Shown here: positions 1 through 8,371 of the stretch, piece after piece
Position numbering within the stretch: position 1 is the first letter of the stretch
Layout of the letters: each line of letters opens with the position of its first letter
Assembly: GCA_951406725.2 (NCBI GenBank)
Contig: CATOCA020000075.1
Coordinates: forward strand, 1-8,371
Origin: Octopus vulgaris
Taxonomy: Eukaryota
Reading direction: 5' to 3'
DNA length: 8,371 nt
Notes under the pieces: generated by a model
What the model saw: only the letters and a program-made list of their open reading frames with translations
Told to the model about the DNA's origin: nothing
Databases searched by the model: none
Made by a program: the position numbers and the translations under genes

Positions 1-71
1 GTCCAGGATTCGAGCTCACAACCTCATGATCGTAAGCTCGACGCTCTAACCACTGAGCCATGCGCCTTCAC
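1..71 (-). mobile_element. 5' head of a tRNA-derived SINE, truncated by the window edge
   Basis: Minus strand reads GTGAAGGCGCATGGCTCAGTGGTTAGAGCGTCGAGCTTACGATCATGAGGTTGTGAGCTCGAATCCTGGAC. Pol III A box TGGCTCAGTGG lies at 60-50 and a B-box-like GCTCGAATCC at 15-6, with tRNA spacing. The anticodon and T stems pair poorly, so this is a SINE head rather than a functional tRNA. Confidence 0.8.

Positions 72-97
<26 letters not shown>
72..97. repeat. (AT)13 microsatellite
   Basis: Perfect AT dinucleotide run between the two SINE-like fragments. Confidence 0.95.
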
Positions 98-103
<6 letters not shown>

Positions 104-104
104 A

Positions 105-279
105 TGGCACGTAAAAAGCACCCACTACACTCGCGGAGTGGTTGGCGTAAGGAAGGGCATCCAACTGTAGAAACTATGCCAGATCAGACTGGAGCCTGGA
201 GCAGCCCCTGGCCTCCCACACTCTGGTCGAACCGTCCAACCCGTGCTGGCGCGGAAAACGGACGTTACACGATGATGAT
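105..279 (+). mobile_element. 5'-truncated 3' end of a SINE or RTE-type LINE, ending in (GAT)3
   Basis: GC-balanced island inside TA repeats. It contains GTTGGCGTAAGGAAGGGCATCCAACTGTAGAAAC, which resembles the RTE-derived 3' segment shared by many SINEs (recalled, not searched). It has a terminal nested stem-loop (CGTCC 233-237 with GGACG 260-264; CCGTGC 241-246 with GCGCGG 249-254) and a short tandem tail GATGATGAT at 271-279. Confidence 0.7.
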
Positions 280-350
280 ATATGTGTAAGTATACATATA
301 TATGTATATTTATATACGTATATATATATACATATATATGTATATATATA

Positions 351-557
351 CATACATGTATATATACATACATGTATATATACATACATGTATATATACA
401 TACATGTATATATACATACATGTATATATACATACATGTATATATACATACATGTATATATACATACATGTATATATACATACATGTATATATACATACA
501 TGTATATATTCATACATGTATATATACATACATGTATATATACATACATGTATATAT
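351..557. repeat. 16-bp tandem repeat (CATACATGTATATATA), ~13 copies
   Basis: Units start every 16 bp from 351 to 543, with a single A>T variant at 510. Confidence 0.92.
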
Positions 558-574
558 GCATATGTATATATACA

Positions 575-612
<38 letters not shown>

Positions 613-678
613 TATATATACATATATGTATATATACATATATGTATATATATATATATGTATATATAGATATATATA

Positions 679-1446
679 CATATATGTATATATACATATA
701 TGTATATATACATATATGTATATATACATATATGTATATATACATATATGTATATATACATATATGTATATATACATATATCTATATATACATATATGTA
801 TATATACATATATGTATATATACATATATGTATATATACATATATGTATATATACATATATGTATATATACATATATGTATATATACATATATGTATATA
901 TACATATATGTATATATACATATATGTATATATACATATATGTATATATACATATATGTATATATACATATATGTATATATACATATATGTATATATACA
1001 TATATGTATATATACATATATGTATATATACATATATGTATATATACATATATGTATATATACATATATGTATATATACATATATGTATATATACATATA
1101 TGTATATATACATATATGTATATATATACATATATGTATATATATACATATATGTATATATACATATATGTATATATACATATATGTATATATACATATA
1201 TGTATATATACATATATGTATATATACATATATGTATATATACATATATGTATATATACATATATGTATATATACATATATGTATATATACATATATGTA
1301 TATATACATATATGTATATATACATATATGTATATATATACATATATGTATATATATACATATATGTATATATACATATATGTATATATACATATATGTA
1401 TATATACATATATGTATATATACATATATGTATATATACATATATG
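679..1446. repeat. 16-bp self-complementary tandem repeat (CATATATGTATATATA), ~47 copies
   Basis: 27 units of 16 bp (679-1110, G>C variant at 782), 2 of 18 bp, 11 of 16 bp, 2 of 18 bp, then 5 of 16 bp. Less regular copies continue to ~1855. Confidence 0.92.
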
Positions 1447-1447
1447 T

Positions 1448-1482
<35 letters not shown>

Positions 1483-1628
1483 TGTATATATACATATATG
1501 TATATATACATATATGTATATATACATATATGTATATATATATATATGTATATATACATATATACATATATGTATATATACATATATGTATATATACATA
1601 TATGTATATATATATATGTATATATACA

Positions 1629-1676
<48 letters not shown>

Positions 1677-1846
1677 TGTATATATATATATGTATATATA
1701 CATATATGTATATATATATATATATATATATACATATATGTATATATACATATATGTATATATACATATATGTATATATACATATATGTATATATACATA
1801 TATGTATATATACATATATGTATATATATATATATGTATATATACA

Positions 1847-1927
<81 letters not shown>

Positions 1928-1985
1928 TATACATATATGTATATATATATATGTATATATATATATGTATATATATGTATATATG

Positions 1986-2154
<169 letters not shown>

Positions 2155-2167
2155 ATATGTATATATA

Positions 2168-2199
<32 letters not shown>

Positions 2200-2237
2200 C
2201 ATATATATACATATATATATATACATATATGTATATA

Positions 2238-2574
<337 letters not shown>

Positions 2575-2611
2575 CATATATATAAATATATATATATACA
2601 TATATATATAA

Positions 2612-2644
<33 letters not shown>

Positions 2645-2841
2645 TATATATATATATATATATATACATATATAATATATATATATATGTATATATACTA
2701 TATATATATATATACATATATATGTACATATATGTATATATATATATGTATATATAATATATATATATATATACATCAATGATGATATATATATACATAT
2801 ATATACATATATATATATACATATATGTATATATATATATG

Positions 2842-2900
<59 letters not shown>

Positions 2901-2945
2901 TGTATATATATATATGTATATATACATATATATACATATATATAC

Positions 2946-3036
<91 letters not shown>

Positions 3037-3079
3037 CATATATATGTACATATATGTATATATATATATGTATATATAA

Positions 3080-3116
<37 letters not shown>

Positions 3117-3184
3117 GTATATATATATGTATATATACATATATATATATATGTATATATACATATATATATATGTATATATAC

Positions 3185-3211
3185 ATACTTTGATACTTTG
3201 ATACTTTGATA
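3185..3211 (-). repeat. LINE 3' tail, (TATCAAAG) x3.4
   Basis: Plus strand has ATACTTTG at 3185, 3193 and 3201, followed by ATA. An 8-bp tandem tail instead of poly(A) is typical of CR1-clade elements. Confidence 0.9.
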
Positions 3212-3217
3212 GGTTTC

Positions 3218-3231
3218 GGCCATTATTGGCC
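3218..3231 (-). other. 3'UTR hairpin, candidate RT recognition structure
   Basis: GGCCA-ATAA-TGGCC lies 6 nt upstream of the tail. A second short inverted repeat CACCA-GG-TGGTG is at 3265-3254. 3'-terminal stem-loops are known cis signals of stringent L2/CR1-group LINEs. Confidence 0.55.
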
Positions 3232-3277
3232 CAGGCCATGTCTAACTTAATAGCACCACCTGGTGAAGTCTTTCAAG

Positions 3278-3736
3278 TCAGAATTTGGGCACTATGGCCC
3301 ACTCAAGTAGAGAGTTATTGTTTACAGAGACATATCCGGGTGTAGGGGGTTTATCTGGGATTTCTTGAAGGAATCTGTCCAAAGACTTCTTGAACCCTAT
3401 AGGGTCAGTTTCTGTTTTAATGTGTTTTGGTGTAATGTTAAAGAGAGCGGGGCCAATTGAGGTGAAATAATTGTGCCGTATTGTTGTTATGAGATGAGAG
3501 TGCGATTTTTGTTTTGGGCGGATGGCACGGGGCCCAAGCCTTGGATGTACCTTAAAGGTGATGCCAACATCATTTGGGCAATGCTGATGGAATATTTTCC
3601 ACATCATGCAGATGATGTAGCACTCACGACGACGTTGGAGAGAATAGAGTTTTAGCTTTTCTAGTCGACCCCAATAGTCGAGGCCTGTCATGCCATCTAT
3701 CTTTTTTGTGATTGCCCTTTGAGGTGCTTCGACTTT
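3278..3736 (-). CDS. C-terminal part of LINE ORF2, separated by a 1-nt frameshift
   Basis: KVEAPQRAITKKIDGMTGLDYWGRLEKLKLYSLQRRRECYIICMMWKI...FKKSLDRFLQEIPDKP is the expected continuation after LWSPHTIQGIK. Stop TGA at 3280-3278. It lies within track ORF 3278..3775. Confidence 0.85.
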   Translation of the reverse strand, partial: KVEAPQRAITKKIDGMTGLDYWGRLEKLKLYSLQRRRECYIICMMWKIFHQHCPNDVGITFKVHPRLGPRAIRPKQKSHSHLITTIRHNYFTSIGPALFNITPKHIKTETDPIGFKKSLDRFLQEIPDKPPTPGYVSVNNNSLLEWAIVPKF

Positions 3737-6312
3737 TTGATACCTTGTATTGTGTGGGGAGACCACAGTGGACAACAGTATTCAAGGTGGGGTCGGGCAA
3801 AAGTGGAGAAGAGAAGGATAATGGTGTGGATATCTCTCGACTGGAAAGTTCTGAGAATCCAGGAACACATTCTGCGGGCCATGTCAACTTTGGTGTTTAT
3901 ATGAGTGGCCCAGCTTACGTTGTTGTCCACAATTACTCCCAAGTCTCTGATGTTGTTGGACGCCGCGAGAGTTTCACCTGAAGGAAGGGAGTATGGGAGT
4001 TTCAGGGCATCCTCTTTTCCAAAGTGGATTAGCTCAAATTTATCCTCGTTCAGCAGCATATTGTTTTTTTCTGCCCATTGGATAACAGCCAGTAGATCTG
4101 ACTGAAGGCATGTCCGGTCACTCGCCTCATTTATGACCTTCTGTAGCTTGGAGTCATCTGCAAAGATTTTTATGTTGCTGTGCTTGATGATGTCATTAAT
4201 GTCATTAATGTAAATGATGAAAAGAAGTGGGCCCAGCACAGTGCCTTGCGGAACGCCACTACTGACTTTGGCTGGGCTTGATTTTACCCCTTCAACTACA
4301 ACATGTTGAGATCTGTCTGTCAGGAAACACTTAATCCATTTCAGTAACTTTCCAGAGACACCAATGTTGGATAGTTTTTTCAATAGGATCTTGTGATCGA
4401 CCCTGTCGAAGGCCTTACTGAAATCAAGGTAGATGACATCGGTGTTGGAGCCCTCTCCCAAAGCTCTCAAAATGTCCTCAAAGTGATGCAGGAGCTGCGT
4501 TAGGCAGTCCCTTCCATTACGGAACCCATGTTGGTTGGAGATCAGCCGTCTGTTGCTTTCCAGAAATTGGGTTATTTGAGATCTCACCACCCTCTCAAAT
4601 ACCTTGATGATATGAGAGGTGAGTGAGATCGGACGGTAATTCACTGCAAGGGACTTGTTTCCCTTTTTGAAAACTGGGACAACAGACTGGGACAGAAGGT
4701 TTTTTGGAATATAGCCAGCATCCAGTGAGTTTCTCCACAGATTAGCAAGGGGAGATGCAAGTTGGTGTCGACACACCTTCAGGACACAAGCAGGGAACCT
4801 ATCGGGGCCTACTGCTGAATTGTGTTTTATTTCGTTTATCGCCGCTAAGACATCAGGGGCACTAAACGTTATGTCCGATATAGTGTGTTGGGGGTTGACA
4901 TCACTGATACAGCCCAGATCGGCCATATCAGGATTGCTGAAAACAGAGCAGTATTGTTTCTGCAGTATCTCGGCCATGGATTTGGCATTATCTTGGAGAG
5001 TGCCAGTTTCGTCAATTAGAGGGCCTACAGTGGAGACAGTGACCCTGCGTTTCCTCGCAAATGAAAAGAACACTTTGGGGTTGAGTTTGATTTTTTCAAT
5101 GGCCCACTTCTCCTCAGCTGATCTTTGGTTATTGATGAGGGACTTCATGCATTGTTGGAGGTTATATTTTTTGGATTCAAGCAGTGCGATAGCCGTCGAA
5201 TGTGTGTGTTGCTGTTGGCAGTACTTTAGTTTGTTAATTTTTTTGTTTGTTCTTTTTATTTTTCTGATAATGGTTTTTCTGTTTTGGGGGATTCTGCACT
5301 TTTTGTTCACAGGTCTTGGTGGGGAGTGTTTTGCACATATGTCTGTGACGGTGTCTACAAAGATCTGCCAAGATGTTTTATGGTTGGTGGAGATGTGTGT
5401 ATGTGTAAAGGACCAGTCAACATTTGATAGCTCGTTCCTGATTGCATCCCAGTTGGCTTTATGGAGATCCATGTTGTCAAATGGGTGGGCTGGAGGAAGG
5501 TCACTAGGATTAGCTTTCGGCTGGTGGAATTTCATGTTACAGAGAACCATGTCATGGTCTGAAAGAAGGGTTTTTTCCACTGTAACGTTATGTATAGTGT
5601 TAGTGTGGTTACTAAACACTAGGTCCAAAATGTTCTGATGTCTTGTTGGTGCAAGGACAAGTTGGGACAAGAAAAACTCATTCGTAAAGTCGAAAAGTGA
5701 CTCTGCTGCTTCTTTGTCAGCGGTTGAGGCGGGAGTGCTTGGTTTCAAACAGTTTGTAGTCCAGTCAACACAGGGTAGATTGAAGTCTCCCATCATGAGT
5801 ATGTTGCTAGAATGGCACTGTTGAATAAAGCACTTAATGCTGTTGAGGCATTCTTTAAAGCACAGTATGGGTGTTTGGGGCGGCCTATAGAGCCCAATTA
5901 CTGTCAGATCATTGGCTTTGTTGTGCACGGTGACTGATTCACAGTAGCCGTTGGAGAATATACTATTTCCATCTGCCGTAAATGAATCATGCAGGAAAAT
6001 GGCAGTTCCACCCTTCCTCCTGCCGATACGATCCGCGCGGATGGTTGTGAAATTCTTCACTCTCACTTCGGCTTCCAAGTGGGAGTTGTCAAGGTGGGTC
6101 TCAGTGAGAATGAAGAAAGGGATGTGGTGTGAATGGTTACCAACCCAGTCTTCAATGAATTGGACCTTCCATTTTTGTGCATTGATGGAAGGGCTGACAC
6201 CTTGTGCATTGAGTAGGAATGTGGAGGTTAGTGTAGTGGCTGGTTTTGACTGTTGCAGGGGGCTTGGATTTTTTGTGTGTGTTAGTGGCAGCAATGTGGG
6301 GAATTGGTGCAC
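3697..6312 (-). CDS. LINE ORF2: APE-type endonuclease plus reverse transcriptase (frame open from 6408; true end 3278 once the indel is repaired)
   Basis: Endonuclease motifs LLNAQG, LTETHL, RADR..RKGG, GLYRPP, GDFNLP, PTR..NILDLVF and SDH (~6220-5550). RT motifs NYRPISLTS, QHGFR, YLDFSKAFD, SGVPQGTVLGPLLF, FADD (4164-4153) and RDLGV. The track start at 6312 is GTG, not ATG. Confidence 0.95.
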   Translation of the reverse strand: MHQFPTLLPLTHTKNPSPLQQSKPATTLTSTFLLNAQGVSPSINAQKWKVQFIEDWVGNHSHHIPFFILTETHLDNSHLEAEVRVKNFTTIRADRIGRRKGGTAIFLHDSFTADGNSIFSNGYCESVTVHNKANDLTVIGLYRPPQTPILCFKECLNSIKCFIQQCHSSNILMMGDFNLPCVDWTTNCLKPSTPASTADKEAAESLFDFTNEFFLSQLVLAPTRHQNILDLVFSNHTNTIHNVTVEKTLLSDHDMVLCNMKFHQPKANPSDLPPAHPFDNMDLHKANWDAIRNELSNVDWSFTHTHISTNHKTSWQIFVDTVTDICAKHSPPRPVNKKCRIPQNRKTIIRKIKRTNKKINKLKYCQQQHTHSTAIALLESKKYNLQQCMKSLINNQRSAEEKWAIEKIKLNPKVFFSFARKRRVTVSTVGPLIDETGTLQDNAKSMAEILQKQYCSVFSNPDMADLGCISDVNPQHTISDITFSAPDVLAAINEIKHNSAVGPDRFPACVLKVCRHQLASPLANLWRNSLDAGYIPKNLLSQSVVPVFKKGNKSLAVNYRPISLTSHIIKVFERVVRSQITQFLESNRRLISNQHGFRNGRDCLTQLLHHFEDILRALGEGSNTDVIYLDFSKAFDRVDHKILLKKLSNIGVSGKLLKWIKCFLTDRSQHVVVEGVKSSPAKVSSGVPQGTVLGPLLFIIYINDINDIIKHSNIKIFADDSKLQKVINEASDRTCLQSDLLAVIQWAEKNNMLLNEDKFELIHFGKEDALKLPYSLPSGETLAASNNIRDLGVIVDNNVSWATHINTKVDMARRMCSWILRTFQSRDIHTIILLFSTFARPHLEYCCPLWSPHTIQGIKKSKHLKGQSQKR

Positions 6313-7511
6313 TGGGGTAATAGCATAGGATGGTGTTGAGTGATGGCAAGAATGTTTTTGTGTATCTCTTTTGCCATGTTCAACATGGCTAAAAAAGAAT
6401 TTTCCTGCTTAGGGAGCAGTTTTTGGCTGGAGGTGTGGTTGCACTGTTGGATAGGGTTGTAGTTTCCACTTTTATTGTTGTTGTTTTTGTGTCTTCCTGA
6501 AAAGACTGGACCAGCATTACTGCAGCATGGTGTGTTTCTATTTTTATTGTTATTCAGGTTTGTGTGTTGGCTTGAGGCCCCGTTTCTGTTTGTGCGTCGG
6601 GTCCCTGGAAGATGAGTGAAGGGACAGTCACTCAGTAGACATGTTCTCTCACGTTGGGAATACCGGCAGATTTTGGGACTCCGAGTTGTGTGTGTTTTGA
6701 ATTTCGATTTACTATTTGGTGGTGTTGATGTTATTGTGGGATGCGTGCTTTGGCCTTGGCCAGTAGTGCGTCTAGTGCCGGGTAGATGCGTGAAGATGCA
6801 GTCACTATTTGTGCAGAGTCTCTGGCGCAGTGAATAGCGGCATATTTGGGGATTTCTTGTTTGTGCCGTGGGGGGCGCATTCTGCTTCCTATGTTTCTTT
6901 AAGTTTTTGTTACTGCAGTAGTATTGAGGTGGTGATGTGGGGGAAGAGGGCAGTGGTTTCTTATTTGGTTTTCTGTTGGTATTTTTGGTGATAGAAGACG
7001 ATGGTGGCAGCGGTGGTGATGATGATGATGATAATTGTGGTGGTTGCTGTGAGAGCGGTGAAAAGATACTGGCATTTAGTGAATCGTCTAGTAAGCTAGA
7101 GTTGAGGAGTGGCTGTTGTTGTTCTTGTTGCTGTGGCTGTTGTTGTTGTTGTTGTGCCTGACCGATGTCAGGGTCAGCCATTGTGTTGGGAACCAGGAGT
7201 GGCTCATTCTGTTGTTGTTGTTGTTGTGGCTGCTGATTTTCTAGCTGTTGTTGTTCTTGAACTGTGAAAATATGTAGAAGCTTTTCATAATGGCCTCTTA
7301 TCAGTTTGAAAGATACTTCGATATGTTTCAACTTGCTACGAATCTGTTTGACGGATCGTGTGTTGACCACTTGTGATGTTTTTTCGGCAATCTCATTCAA
7401 ACACAAGACATTTAGATTTTCTGTTTGGGAAAGAGAGAGCCATGTGTTTATTAAAACATCAATTTCGTTATCAGACCAATTTCGTCTGTTGCAGGCCTGC
7501 AAGTTAGTCAT
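6282..7511 (-). CDS. LINE ORF1 nucleic-acid-binding protein (Myb/SANT-like domain, polyQ, two CCCH zinc fingers)
   Basis: 409-aa uninterrupted ORF. ATG sits in an ACAAACATGA context with no upstream ATG in the 5'UTR. N-terminal NWSDNEIDVLINTW...EIAEK...RSVKQIRSKLK, and two C-x8-C-x4-C-x3-H motifs (6842-6786 and 6668-6612). Stop TAA at 6284-6282. Confidence 0.88.
   Translation of the reverse strand: MTNLQACNRRNWSDNEIDVLINTWLSLSQTENLNVLCLNEIAEKTSQVVNTRSVKQIRSKLKHIEVSFKLIRGHYEKLLHIFTVQEQQQLENQQPQQQQQQNEPLLVPNTMADPDIGQAQQQQQQPQQQEQQQPLLNSSLLDDSLNASIFSPLSQQPPQLSSSSSPPLPPSSSITKNTNRKPNKKPLPSSPTSPPQYYCSNKNLKKHRKQNAPPTAQTRNPQICRYSLRQRLCTNSDCIFTHLPGTRRTTGQGQSTHPTITSTPPNSKSKFKTHTTRSPKICRYSQRERTCLLSDCPFTHLPGTRRTNRNGASSQHTNLNNNKNRNTPCCSNAGPVFSGRHKNNNNKSGNYNPIQQCNHTSSQKLLPKQENSFLAMLNMAKEIHKNILAITQHHPMLLPQCTNSPHCCH
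6334..6396 (-). promoter_or_regulatory. Candidate programmed -1 ribosomal frameshift signal (U_UUU_UUA plus stem-loop)
   Basis: ORF1 codons TCT TTT TTA give the heptamer at 6396-6390, and a -1 slip enters the ORF2 frame. Downstream pairings are UGUUGA (6385-6380) with UCAACA (6339-6334) and AUGGCAA (6377-6371) with UUGCCAU (6349-6343). Confidence 0.7.
7113..7259 (-). repeat. CAA/CAG triplet repeats encoding the ORF1 polyQ tracts
   Basis: Plus-strand TTG/CTG runs at 7113-7154 and 7209-7259 translate as QEQQQLENQQPQQQQQQ and QQQQQQPQQQEQQQ. Confidence 0.85.
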
Positions 7512-7793
7512 GTTTGTTTTTCTTTTGTTTGTTTTCCTTTTGATTTTTGAAAATATATATATTCTTTCTTGGGAGTTAAAGAAGTGTATATATATATAAA
7601 TGTTCTCTCTTAAGGGTGTGAGTTTTTGATTATTTGGTTGTTTGAGGATATTAAAAGAAAAACAGGTGTATATAACAATTTGTAGTTAAATGAAAACGTA
7701 CTTACGGGTTTGTAGGCAAACACGTGGTTACAAATATATATATATTTAAGGTCAGTTAGTTTTGAAGCTGTGTAGCTTGCTACTGACTCAGTA
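7512..7793 (-). promoter_or_regulatory. LINE 5'UTR with putative internal promoter
   Basis: ~280 nt A-rich leader with no ATG. It begins with the palindrome TACTGAGTCAGTA (7793-7781), which contains an Inr-like TCAGT and an AP-1-type TGAGTCA. An E-box CACGTG is at 7721-7726. Promoter function is inferred. Confidence 0.5.
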
Positions 7794-8046
7794 TATATAT
7801 ATACATAATATATATATATCCAGTATAATAGTATAATATTATATATATATATATATATATATGATAATATTTATATATATATAAGTATATATATATGTAT
7901 ATATATATATATATATATGATAATATTTACATATATAAGTATATATATATATGTATATATATATATGATAATATTTATATATATAAGTATATATATATAT
8001 TATATATATATATATATATATAGATAGATAGATATATGATAATATT

Positions 8047-8096
<50 letters not shown>

Positions 8097-8158
8097 TAGA
8101 TATATATAATATTATATATAAGTATATATATGTATATATATGTATATATATATATATA

Positions 8159-8243
<85 letters not shown>

Positions 8244-8294
8244 TAATATATATATATATATATATATGAATGATATATATATATATATATATAT

Positions 8295-8296
<2 letters not shown>
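7792..8296. repeat. Compound (TA)n array with a GATAATATTTA...TAAGTA higher-order motif and short (TAGA)n
   Basis: GATAATATTTA recurs at 7863, 7919, 7967 and 8038, separated by variable TA runs. A long pure (AT)n lies at 8161-8240. Confidence 0.92.

Positions 8297-8330
<34 letters not shown>
8297..8330. repeat. (TG)17 microsatellite
   Basis: Perfect TG run. Confidence 0.95.
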
Positions 8331-8334
<4 letters not shown>

Positions 8335-8341
8335 ATATATA

Positions 8342-8371
8342 CAGGGGTTGTACAAAACAATGGAAACATCT
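8342..8371. mobile_element. Probable Tc1/mariner terminal inverted repeat, truncated by the window edge
   Basis: TA (8340-8341) followed by CAGGGGTTGTACAAAACAATGGAAACATCT. This resembles Tc1-type termini of the form TA|CAGGGGTTGGACAA...GAAACA (recalled). The other end is not visible. Confidence 0.55.

Follow-up and report, generated by a model that had tools for sequence, protein, structure and literature searches.

A conserved slippery heptamer at the ORF1-ORF2 junction of an octopus CR1-like LINE points to programmed -1 ribosomal frameshifting

For the translation of the second open reading frame (ORF2) of long interspersed nuclear elements (LINEs), the answers to date come from L1 and SART1, in which ORF2 is reached by reinitiation or coupling (PMC2881922, PMC1965478; all papers are cited here from their available excerpts). 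For LINEs, PMC5009743 favours unconventional initiation, and PMC4700185 mentions frameshifting for long terminal repeat (LTR) elements only. The Dictyostelium elements TRE5-A and TRE3-A are said in a figure legend to need a -1 frameshift for ORF2 (PMC5911963), of which the available text of PMC5633606 makes no mention. The word 'frameshift' is absent from the excerpts of three surveys covering CR1-group elements (PMC4120745, PMC10294476, PMC13343379), and our literature search, with Repbase reports and most subscription papers outside it, found no frameshift signal reported for CR1-like LINEs. Here we analysed a stretch of Octopus vulgaris DNA of 8,371 nucleotides (nt; assembly GCA_951406725.2, contig CATOCA020000075.1, positions 1 to 8,371; hereafter the window). 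It contains one copy of a near-full-length LINE with an APE endonuclease and a reverse transcriptase (RT), on the minus strand from ~7790 to 3185. A first-pass annotation of the window had proposed that ORF1 and ORF2 of this element are joined by a retrovirus-style -1 frameshift, in contrast to the reinitiation or UAAUG coupling of well-studied LINEs. This contrast was incomplete, because a -1 frameshift had already been stated for TRE5-A/TRE3-A (PMC5911963).

The ORF1-ORF2 junction in the window and its family

The ORF2 frame is -1 relative to ORF1, opens after the TAA at 6411-6409 and overlaps ORF1 by 127 nt; recomputation from the window returned the layout that had been annotated. The first ATG of the ORF2 frame is at 5796 inside the endonuclease, where it is codon 205 (ILMMGDFN), and the 204 codons before it lack an AUG, as had been claimed. 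A near-cognate CTG is present at 6258. Within the ORF1 codons TCT TTT TTA lies T_TTT_TTA (6396-6390), which has the X_XXY_YYZ phase and follows the frame opening by 12 nt. The heptamer thus stands where it had been described, and it is the sole in-phase heptamer of the strict pattern across the 409 codons of ORF1. A UAAUG of the SART1 type, in which an ORF2 AUG in the -1 frame overlaps the stop codon of ORF1, was found neither in the window nor at the 16 ORF1 stops examined. The predicted fusion has 374 + 1037 = 1411 amino acids (aa) when a frame break near 3733 is read as in the two of two sequencing runs that cover it; the earlier figure of ~1410 aa holds as a predicted length. The window by itself does not make the open -1 overlap significant (1.2 stops expected, P0 0.26). 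The significance comes from the relatives.

Family copies were read via the assembled contigs of eight public runs (seven studies); assembly drops rare variants. The main contig spanned the junction in all eight runs with two to four differences and no gap. Thus the -1 layout is the family state of a young element, and a copy-specific indel in the T run was ruled out. A family consensus with both ORFs in one frame, or with an ORF2 AUG, would have spoken against the annotation; the family keeps the -1 junction in 8/8 runs with neither indel nor AUG. Only the window copy has the frame break near 3733 (two of two covering runs differ). A sister subfamily, ~81% identical in the endonuclease (window 5997-6227), was present in 4/4 runs, its junction being outside the view.

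The slip site and the open -1 frame in related LINEs

Relatives with DNA were collected by an endonuclease alignment search, which gave 80 metagenome loci (the best 80 of 457 confirmed); a further 34 loci came from prokaryote-labelled assemblies. The latter are LINE fragments (L081-L114) and most likely represent eukaryotic contamination of the bins. In a FastTree phylogeny of 134 sequences the window, L001-L016 and L020 formed one clade with a support of 0.995; L064 was too short for the tree and was added to the clade by its 79% identity to L015. The endonucleases of the relatives are 27-79% identical, mostly near 30-45%. From the 18 clade loci the junction count leaves out L005 and L020, the contigs of which start at or inside the endonuclease, and L011 (see below). 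The relatives' counts ignore kinship (L010/L012 are 69% and L015/L064 79% identical), and background and stop counts include the window.

The ORFs overlapped in -1 by 151-631 nt in 15 of 15 assessable relatives. Conservation of the heptamer, on which the first-pass proposal had been staked, was found: T_TTT_TTA was in phase in 12 of the 15, two had another known slippery heptamer, G_GAT_TTT (L001 and L007, on separate branches), and L064 had T_TTT_TTG. U_UUU_UUA, G_GAU_UUU, A_AAA_AAC and U_UUA_AAC are established viral shift sites, and G_GA is a known shift site too (PMC5009743). In all 15 relatives the heptamer was located 0-54 nt past the opening of the ORF2 frame. By ORF1 alignment the slip sites are homologous: each comes behind the final CCCH finger, where an amphipathic helix begins. 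As a codon background, TTT encodes 54 of 138 Phe and TTA 46 of 377 Leu in these ORF1s, yet T_TTT_TTA occurs at none of the 64 other in-frame Phe-Leu pairs. The base after the heptamer is G at all 13 T_TTT_TTA sites. On the aligned sequences, nucleotide conservation at the slip site is greater than the protein would need.

Before the site the -1 frame had 317 stops over 3375 codons; from the site to the ORF1 stop it had none in 1468 codons, while the +1 frame had 79 stops in 1452 codons over the same stretch. Synonymous resampling of the ORF1 tail gave an expectation of 47 -1-frame stops versus the 0 found. In 16/16 elements the nearest upstream -1-frame stop stood 0-18 codons before the site, and 12/16 had no Met between the site and endonuclease motif I. 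For the helix and Q/P-rich tail of ORF1 26 stops would be expected if unselected; the ORF1 tail past the slip site seems to be kept open by selection too.

The comparison, with the junction in eight of eight runs and the heptamer in 12 of 15 relatives, supports the proposal, and we infer that ORF2 of the window LINE family is very probably made by programmed -1 ribosomal frameshifting. Because the site lies at a homologous place where the ORFs begin to overlap, the enzyme is likely to come from slippage and fusion and not from a restart as in human L1. A fraction of the ribosomes on ORF1 would slip back one base at U_UUU_UUA, presumably by tandem slippage of the Phe and Leu tRNAs on UUU-UUA and possibly helped by a family-specific downstream stem, and would read S-H-V-E-H-G-K onward. 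The product would be a fusion of ~155 kDa with the ORF1 head, CCCH fingers, linker, endonuclease and RT, yielding the tryptic peptides QENSFLSHVEHGK / QENSFFSHVEHGK. Unshifted ribosomes would finish the ORF1 protein (ORF1p) with its C-terminal helix and Q/P-rich tail. The shift would thereby swap a predicted oligomerising helix and the tail for enzymes, and the ratio of ORF1p to enzyme may resemble that of Gag to Gag-Pol.

A wider survey used an ORF1 profile, which matched 2020 clusters (50% identity) at E up to 1e-10, some of them maybe unrelated CCCH proteins. After the last finger the best 150 clusters had x-F-L in 129 cases, F-F in three and neither in 18. In none of the 129 was x one of E, K, Q, M or W, which lack a U-ending codon (nearby background 24%, P 4e-16), a test that is supporting only, because the profile itself contains FL and a helix N-cap preference may contribute. 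L, V, I and F, with which the run would be longer, were never seen at x either. Nine of the 18 neither-type ORF1s had x-K-N-D, eight of these at the start of the same C-terminal helix (proteins only), likely the footprint expected of A_AAA_AAC after slip-site turnover. P0269, P0297, P0310, P0315, P0323, P0330, P0331 and P0332 make up an x-K-N-D sub-group.

Among distant LINEs with a -1 overlap 15 of 20 carried an in-phase X_XXA_AAC (0.43 expected), as opposed to 1 of 13 loci with a +1 overlap; the 15 loci correspond to ~7 lineages, L040 and L041 being identical. The sites were A_AAA_AAC in 11, G_GAA_AAC in three and U_UUA_AAC in one. These loci (L019, L022, L025, L026, L040, L041, L045, L054, L061, L066, L071, L074, L077, L079, L081) have different ORF1 types. 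L028 and L057 look like frame-damaged copies of such junctions.

Inside the clade, protein P0026 has fingers in frame with endonuclease and RT, and three of its five cluster members are 1185 aa long; the fingers were recognised by eye and have no Pfam match. These three records indicate that a fusion of fingers, endonuclease and RT occurs naturally. In P0301 the ORF1 fingers run in frame into the endonuclease through F-F; it may be a deleted copy. When long ORF1-ORF2 fusions in one frame were sought, P0200 was the single match; it has no endonuclease, seems to be a copy with a deletion and was not taken as support.

With somewhat better than even confidence we extend the view to a very large part of animal CR1-like LINEs (~2000 ORF1 clusters): -1 frameshifting would be their normal route to ORF2, with repeated turnover between U_UUU_UUA, G_GAU_UUU, A_AAA_AAC, G_GAA_AAC and U_UUA_AAC, and would act as a domain switch. 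Because the shift falls at the first codons of the predicted ORF1 coiled coil, the enzyme would keep the RNA/chromatin-binding fingers of ORF1 and lose the oligomerising helix.

The downstream stem and other routes to ORF2

The first-pass annotation had described an HIV-1-like bipartite stem behind the heptamer. The two-part stem is what minimum-energy folding of the window gives (-12.1 kcal/mol; z between -1.6 and -3.3, according to the span folded). Its upper part has 7 bp in the window copy only: two pairs depend on base 6348, at which the window differs from the main contig in 8/8 runs, so that the upper stem of the family has 5 bp, and with the family base the fold has -10.8 kcal/mol. A competing hairpin, GCCAUGU/ACAUGGC, starts directly at the heptamer (-10.6 kcal/mol). 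In 13 of 16 elements the sequence just 3' of the site folded more strongly than control windows did (p 5e-4; mean best z -2.2 against -0.9), and several elements have clear stems 4-8 nt downstream; the stems of L009, L014 and L015 are strong. A search for consensus stems found none in L008/L013/L009/L014 and none downstream of the site in L004/L010/L012; L015 and L064 share one stem with one-sided changes only. Long-range pairing between the post-slip region and the 3' end was not supported: in the 15 elements whose 3' end was in view, many other spans did as well as the best duplex (33/65 in the window). The 8-bp GCCAUGUU helix to the 3' end of the window element was matched by 12/85 spans and is at background. 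As a conserved stimulator the bipartite stem was not upheld, being partly copy-specific and without covariation. With no common stem, no compensatory pair and 3'-end pairing at background, a downstream stem is a plausible but unproven stimulator and a modest one in the window family.

Several observations weigh against programmed frameshifting. The window stem has a z of -2.0 with the family base, two of eight control windows are as good and the spacer is short; short spacers favour -2 shifts on U6A (PMC3458567). No stem is common to the families and no compensatory pair was seen in the three sub-groups compared. L011, with 199 nt upstream in view, has no in-phase heptamer and two in-frame ATGs, and 4 of 16 elements have an ATG before the endonuclease. 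In 16/16 the distance between ORF1 stop and endonuclease start is only -50 to +22 nt, which would suit reinitiation. The clade protein records P0001, P0138, P0147 and P0002-P0004 (proteins only) start with M a few residues before motif I. The reservations about the x-F-L test belong here as well.

The position of the ORF1 stop and the records beginning with M near it would fit an L1- or SART1-like route, in which termination-reinitiation or coupling starts ORF2 on a non-AUG codon close to the end of ORF1 and F-L is kept for the protein helix. This is the textbook route (PMC2881922), any sense codon can replace the ORF2 AUG of L1 (PMC1965478), and the CTG at 6258 could serve in the window. Yet reinitiation explains neither the exact codons, absent from all 64 other Phe-Leu pairs, nor the switch to G_GAU_UUU and x-K-N-D, nor a -1 frame that is open for 36-202 codons before the ORF1 stop and closed right before the heptamer. 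Furthermore, the ORF1 stop falls within endonuclease motif I in 8/16 elements, where it is formed by the L-N codons of the motif, and the ATG after this stop is in the ORF1 frame and not a UAAUG. We regard this route as improbable.

A second alternative takes TTTTTTAG as a 3' splice (or trans-splice) acceptor yielding a separate ORF2 mRNA. The G after all 13 T_TTT_TTA sites indeed gives a U-tract plus AG, and L007 reads TTTTCAG. On the other hand, purines prevail in the 14 nt upstream (pyrimidines 0.36, background 0.46), a competing AG is present in 13/16, C is never tolerated in the run, and L001 and L064 lack a YAG. The A_AAA_AAC-type sites of distant LINEs are not acceptors, and the contigs of eight runs contain no joint at 6388, a weak point since contigs drop rare forms. 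Splicing is very unlikely to account for the junction.

Equally hard to credit is a shift at the RNA or DNA level by polymerase slippage on the U6 run, or mere leakage at a low level that no programmed stimulator drives: a stretch of six T and the weak stem of the window family would fit, but the run never departs from six T (in none of 129 was x L, V, I or F), G_GAU_UUU has no such run, and the contigs of 8/8 runs have no indel in it.

The element, its setting and known systems

The element has the hallmarks of a LINE, i.e. an APE endonuclease followed by RT in ORF2, no LTR, a simple-repeat 3' tail and a multicopy state. ORF1 consists of a Myb/SANT-like head, a Q/S/P-rich spacer, two CCCH-type fingers and the C-terminal amphipathic helix (Table 1).

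Table 1. Parts of the LINE and of its junction, in window positions
Feature	Position	Strand	Remarks
5' leader	7512..7790	-	5' end approximate; no upstream ATG; assembled contigs reach 7780
ORF1, 409 aa	6282..7511	-	ATG 7511, stop 6284-6282
Myb/SANT-like domain of ORF1	7293..7487	-	PF13837, E 2.4e-5, just below curated cut-off
CCCH-type finger 1	6786..6845	-	PF14608, E 0.089; P-x-x-C..C..C..H columns invariant in 12 ORF1s
CCCH-type finger 2, duplicate of finger 1	6612..6671	-	ORF1 alignment
TAA, last stop of the -1 (ORF2) frame before the slip site	6409..6411	-	
Slippery heptamer U_UUU_UUA, ORF1 phase (x-F-L)	6390..6396	-	
Predicted stem-loop, 4-nt spacer	6334..6385	-	lower stem 6 bp; upper 5 bp (family) or 7 bp (window copy); modest stability
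ORF1 C-terminal amphipathic helix (predicted coiled coil), begins at slip-site F-L	6330..6395	-	hydrophobic heptad pattern, 16 elements
ORF2 frame (-1): linker, APE endonuclease, RT	3278..6408	-	one copy-specific frame break near 3733
APE endonuclease	5545..6231	-	PF14529, E 3e-14; PF03372; first ATG of the frame inside, 5796
Reverse transcriptase	3934..4662	-	PF00078, E 5e-30
Short 3' untranslated region	3185..3277	-	ends in 8-bp tandem repeat, 3.4 copies, 3185-3211

The 8-bp tandem repeat tail and the absence of RNase H and of a C-terminal CCHC are CR1-like traits. The C-terminal motifs of ORF2 we take to resemble those of CR1. The window LINE likely belongs to the CR1 clade. Among its named relatives the closest, sister to it in the tree at 52% identity, comes from Argonauta hians; ctenophores supplied others. 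PHD-type ORF1s occur in relatives of the window LINE and are known in CR1/L2 (PMC4120745). The Myb/SANT-like head (7293-7487) stands where the relatives L003, L007, L014 and P0111 carry a PHD-like finger. This and the duplicated last CCCH finger amount to a swap of modules within an ORF1 that is homologous in its other parts.

Very long (TA)n-type tracts flank the LINE on both sides (window 296-3183 and 7792-8331). It is possible that the LINE prefers microsatellite targets; a target-site duplication is not definable. By eye, the minus strand of window 1-70 resembles a tRNA-like head of a short interspersed nuclear element with A- and B-box-like motifs, and ~125-280 on the minus strand is another short non-TA segment; both are probably other repeats. 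ARAGORN found 0 tRNAs in the window, Rfam gave no match near the gathering score, and no relatives were found among the viral contigs searched.

A conserved and precisely placed slip site offers a testable third route to ORF2, beside reinitiation and coupling, which predicts an ORF1-ORF2 fusion and a fixed ratio of ORF1p to enzyme like that of Gag and Gag-Pol. If true, ORF2 annotation would change in thousands of repeat families, in which AUG-based calls cut off catalytic motifs, and animals would hold a large reservoir of -1 frameshift signals. ORF1 modules (PHD, Myb/SANT, CCCH) would then travel on the integrating enzyme and may steer it.

Among known systems the PHD-type LINEs of the CR1 group (Metcalfe and Casane 2014) share with the window LINE the APE endonuclease and RT, a modular ORF1 (with PHD in the relatives) and the 8-bp 3' tandem repeat; unlike them the window copy has a Myb/SANT-like head. 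The available text of that survey (PMC4120745) has 0 matches for 'CCCH' or 'frameshift'. L1 and SART1 likewise have a bicistronic LINE RNA, and their ORF2 depends on ORF1 translation (PMC2881922). Yet their ORF2 protein is a separate one, made by restarting or coupling once ORF1 has terminated, whereas in the window clade the ORFs overlap by 127-631 nt in -1 without a usable AUG. TRE5-A and TRE3-A are APE-type non-LTR elements like the window LINE, with a stated -1 frameshift (PMC5911963). They are protist elements targeted to tRNA genes and have a C-terminal zinc finger, while the window LINE is an animal CR1-like element with a conserved heptamer that turns over between known slippery motifs; for TRE5-A/TRE3-A this comparison draws on the review legend only. 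The gag-pol junction of human immunodeficiency virus 1 (HIV-1) has the same heptamer, phase and following G as the window LINE (PMC5009743, PMC3458567), and in both an upstream structural ORF with zinc fingers precedes a downstream polymerase ORF in -1. Unlike HIV-1, the window LINE is a non-LTR element with an APE endonuclease and has neither protease nor integrase; its stem is weaker and differs per family, and the 0 frame continues for 36-202 codons as a helix and Q/P tail.

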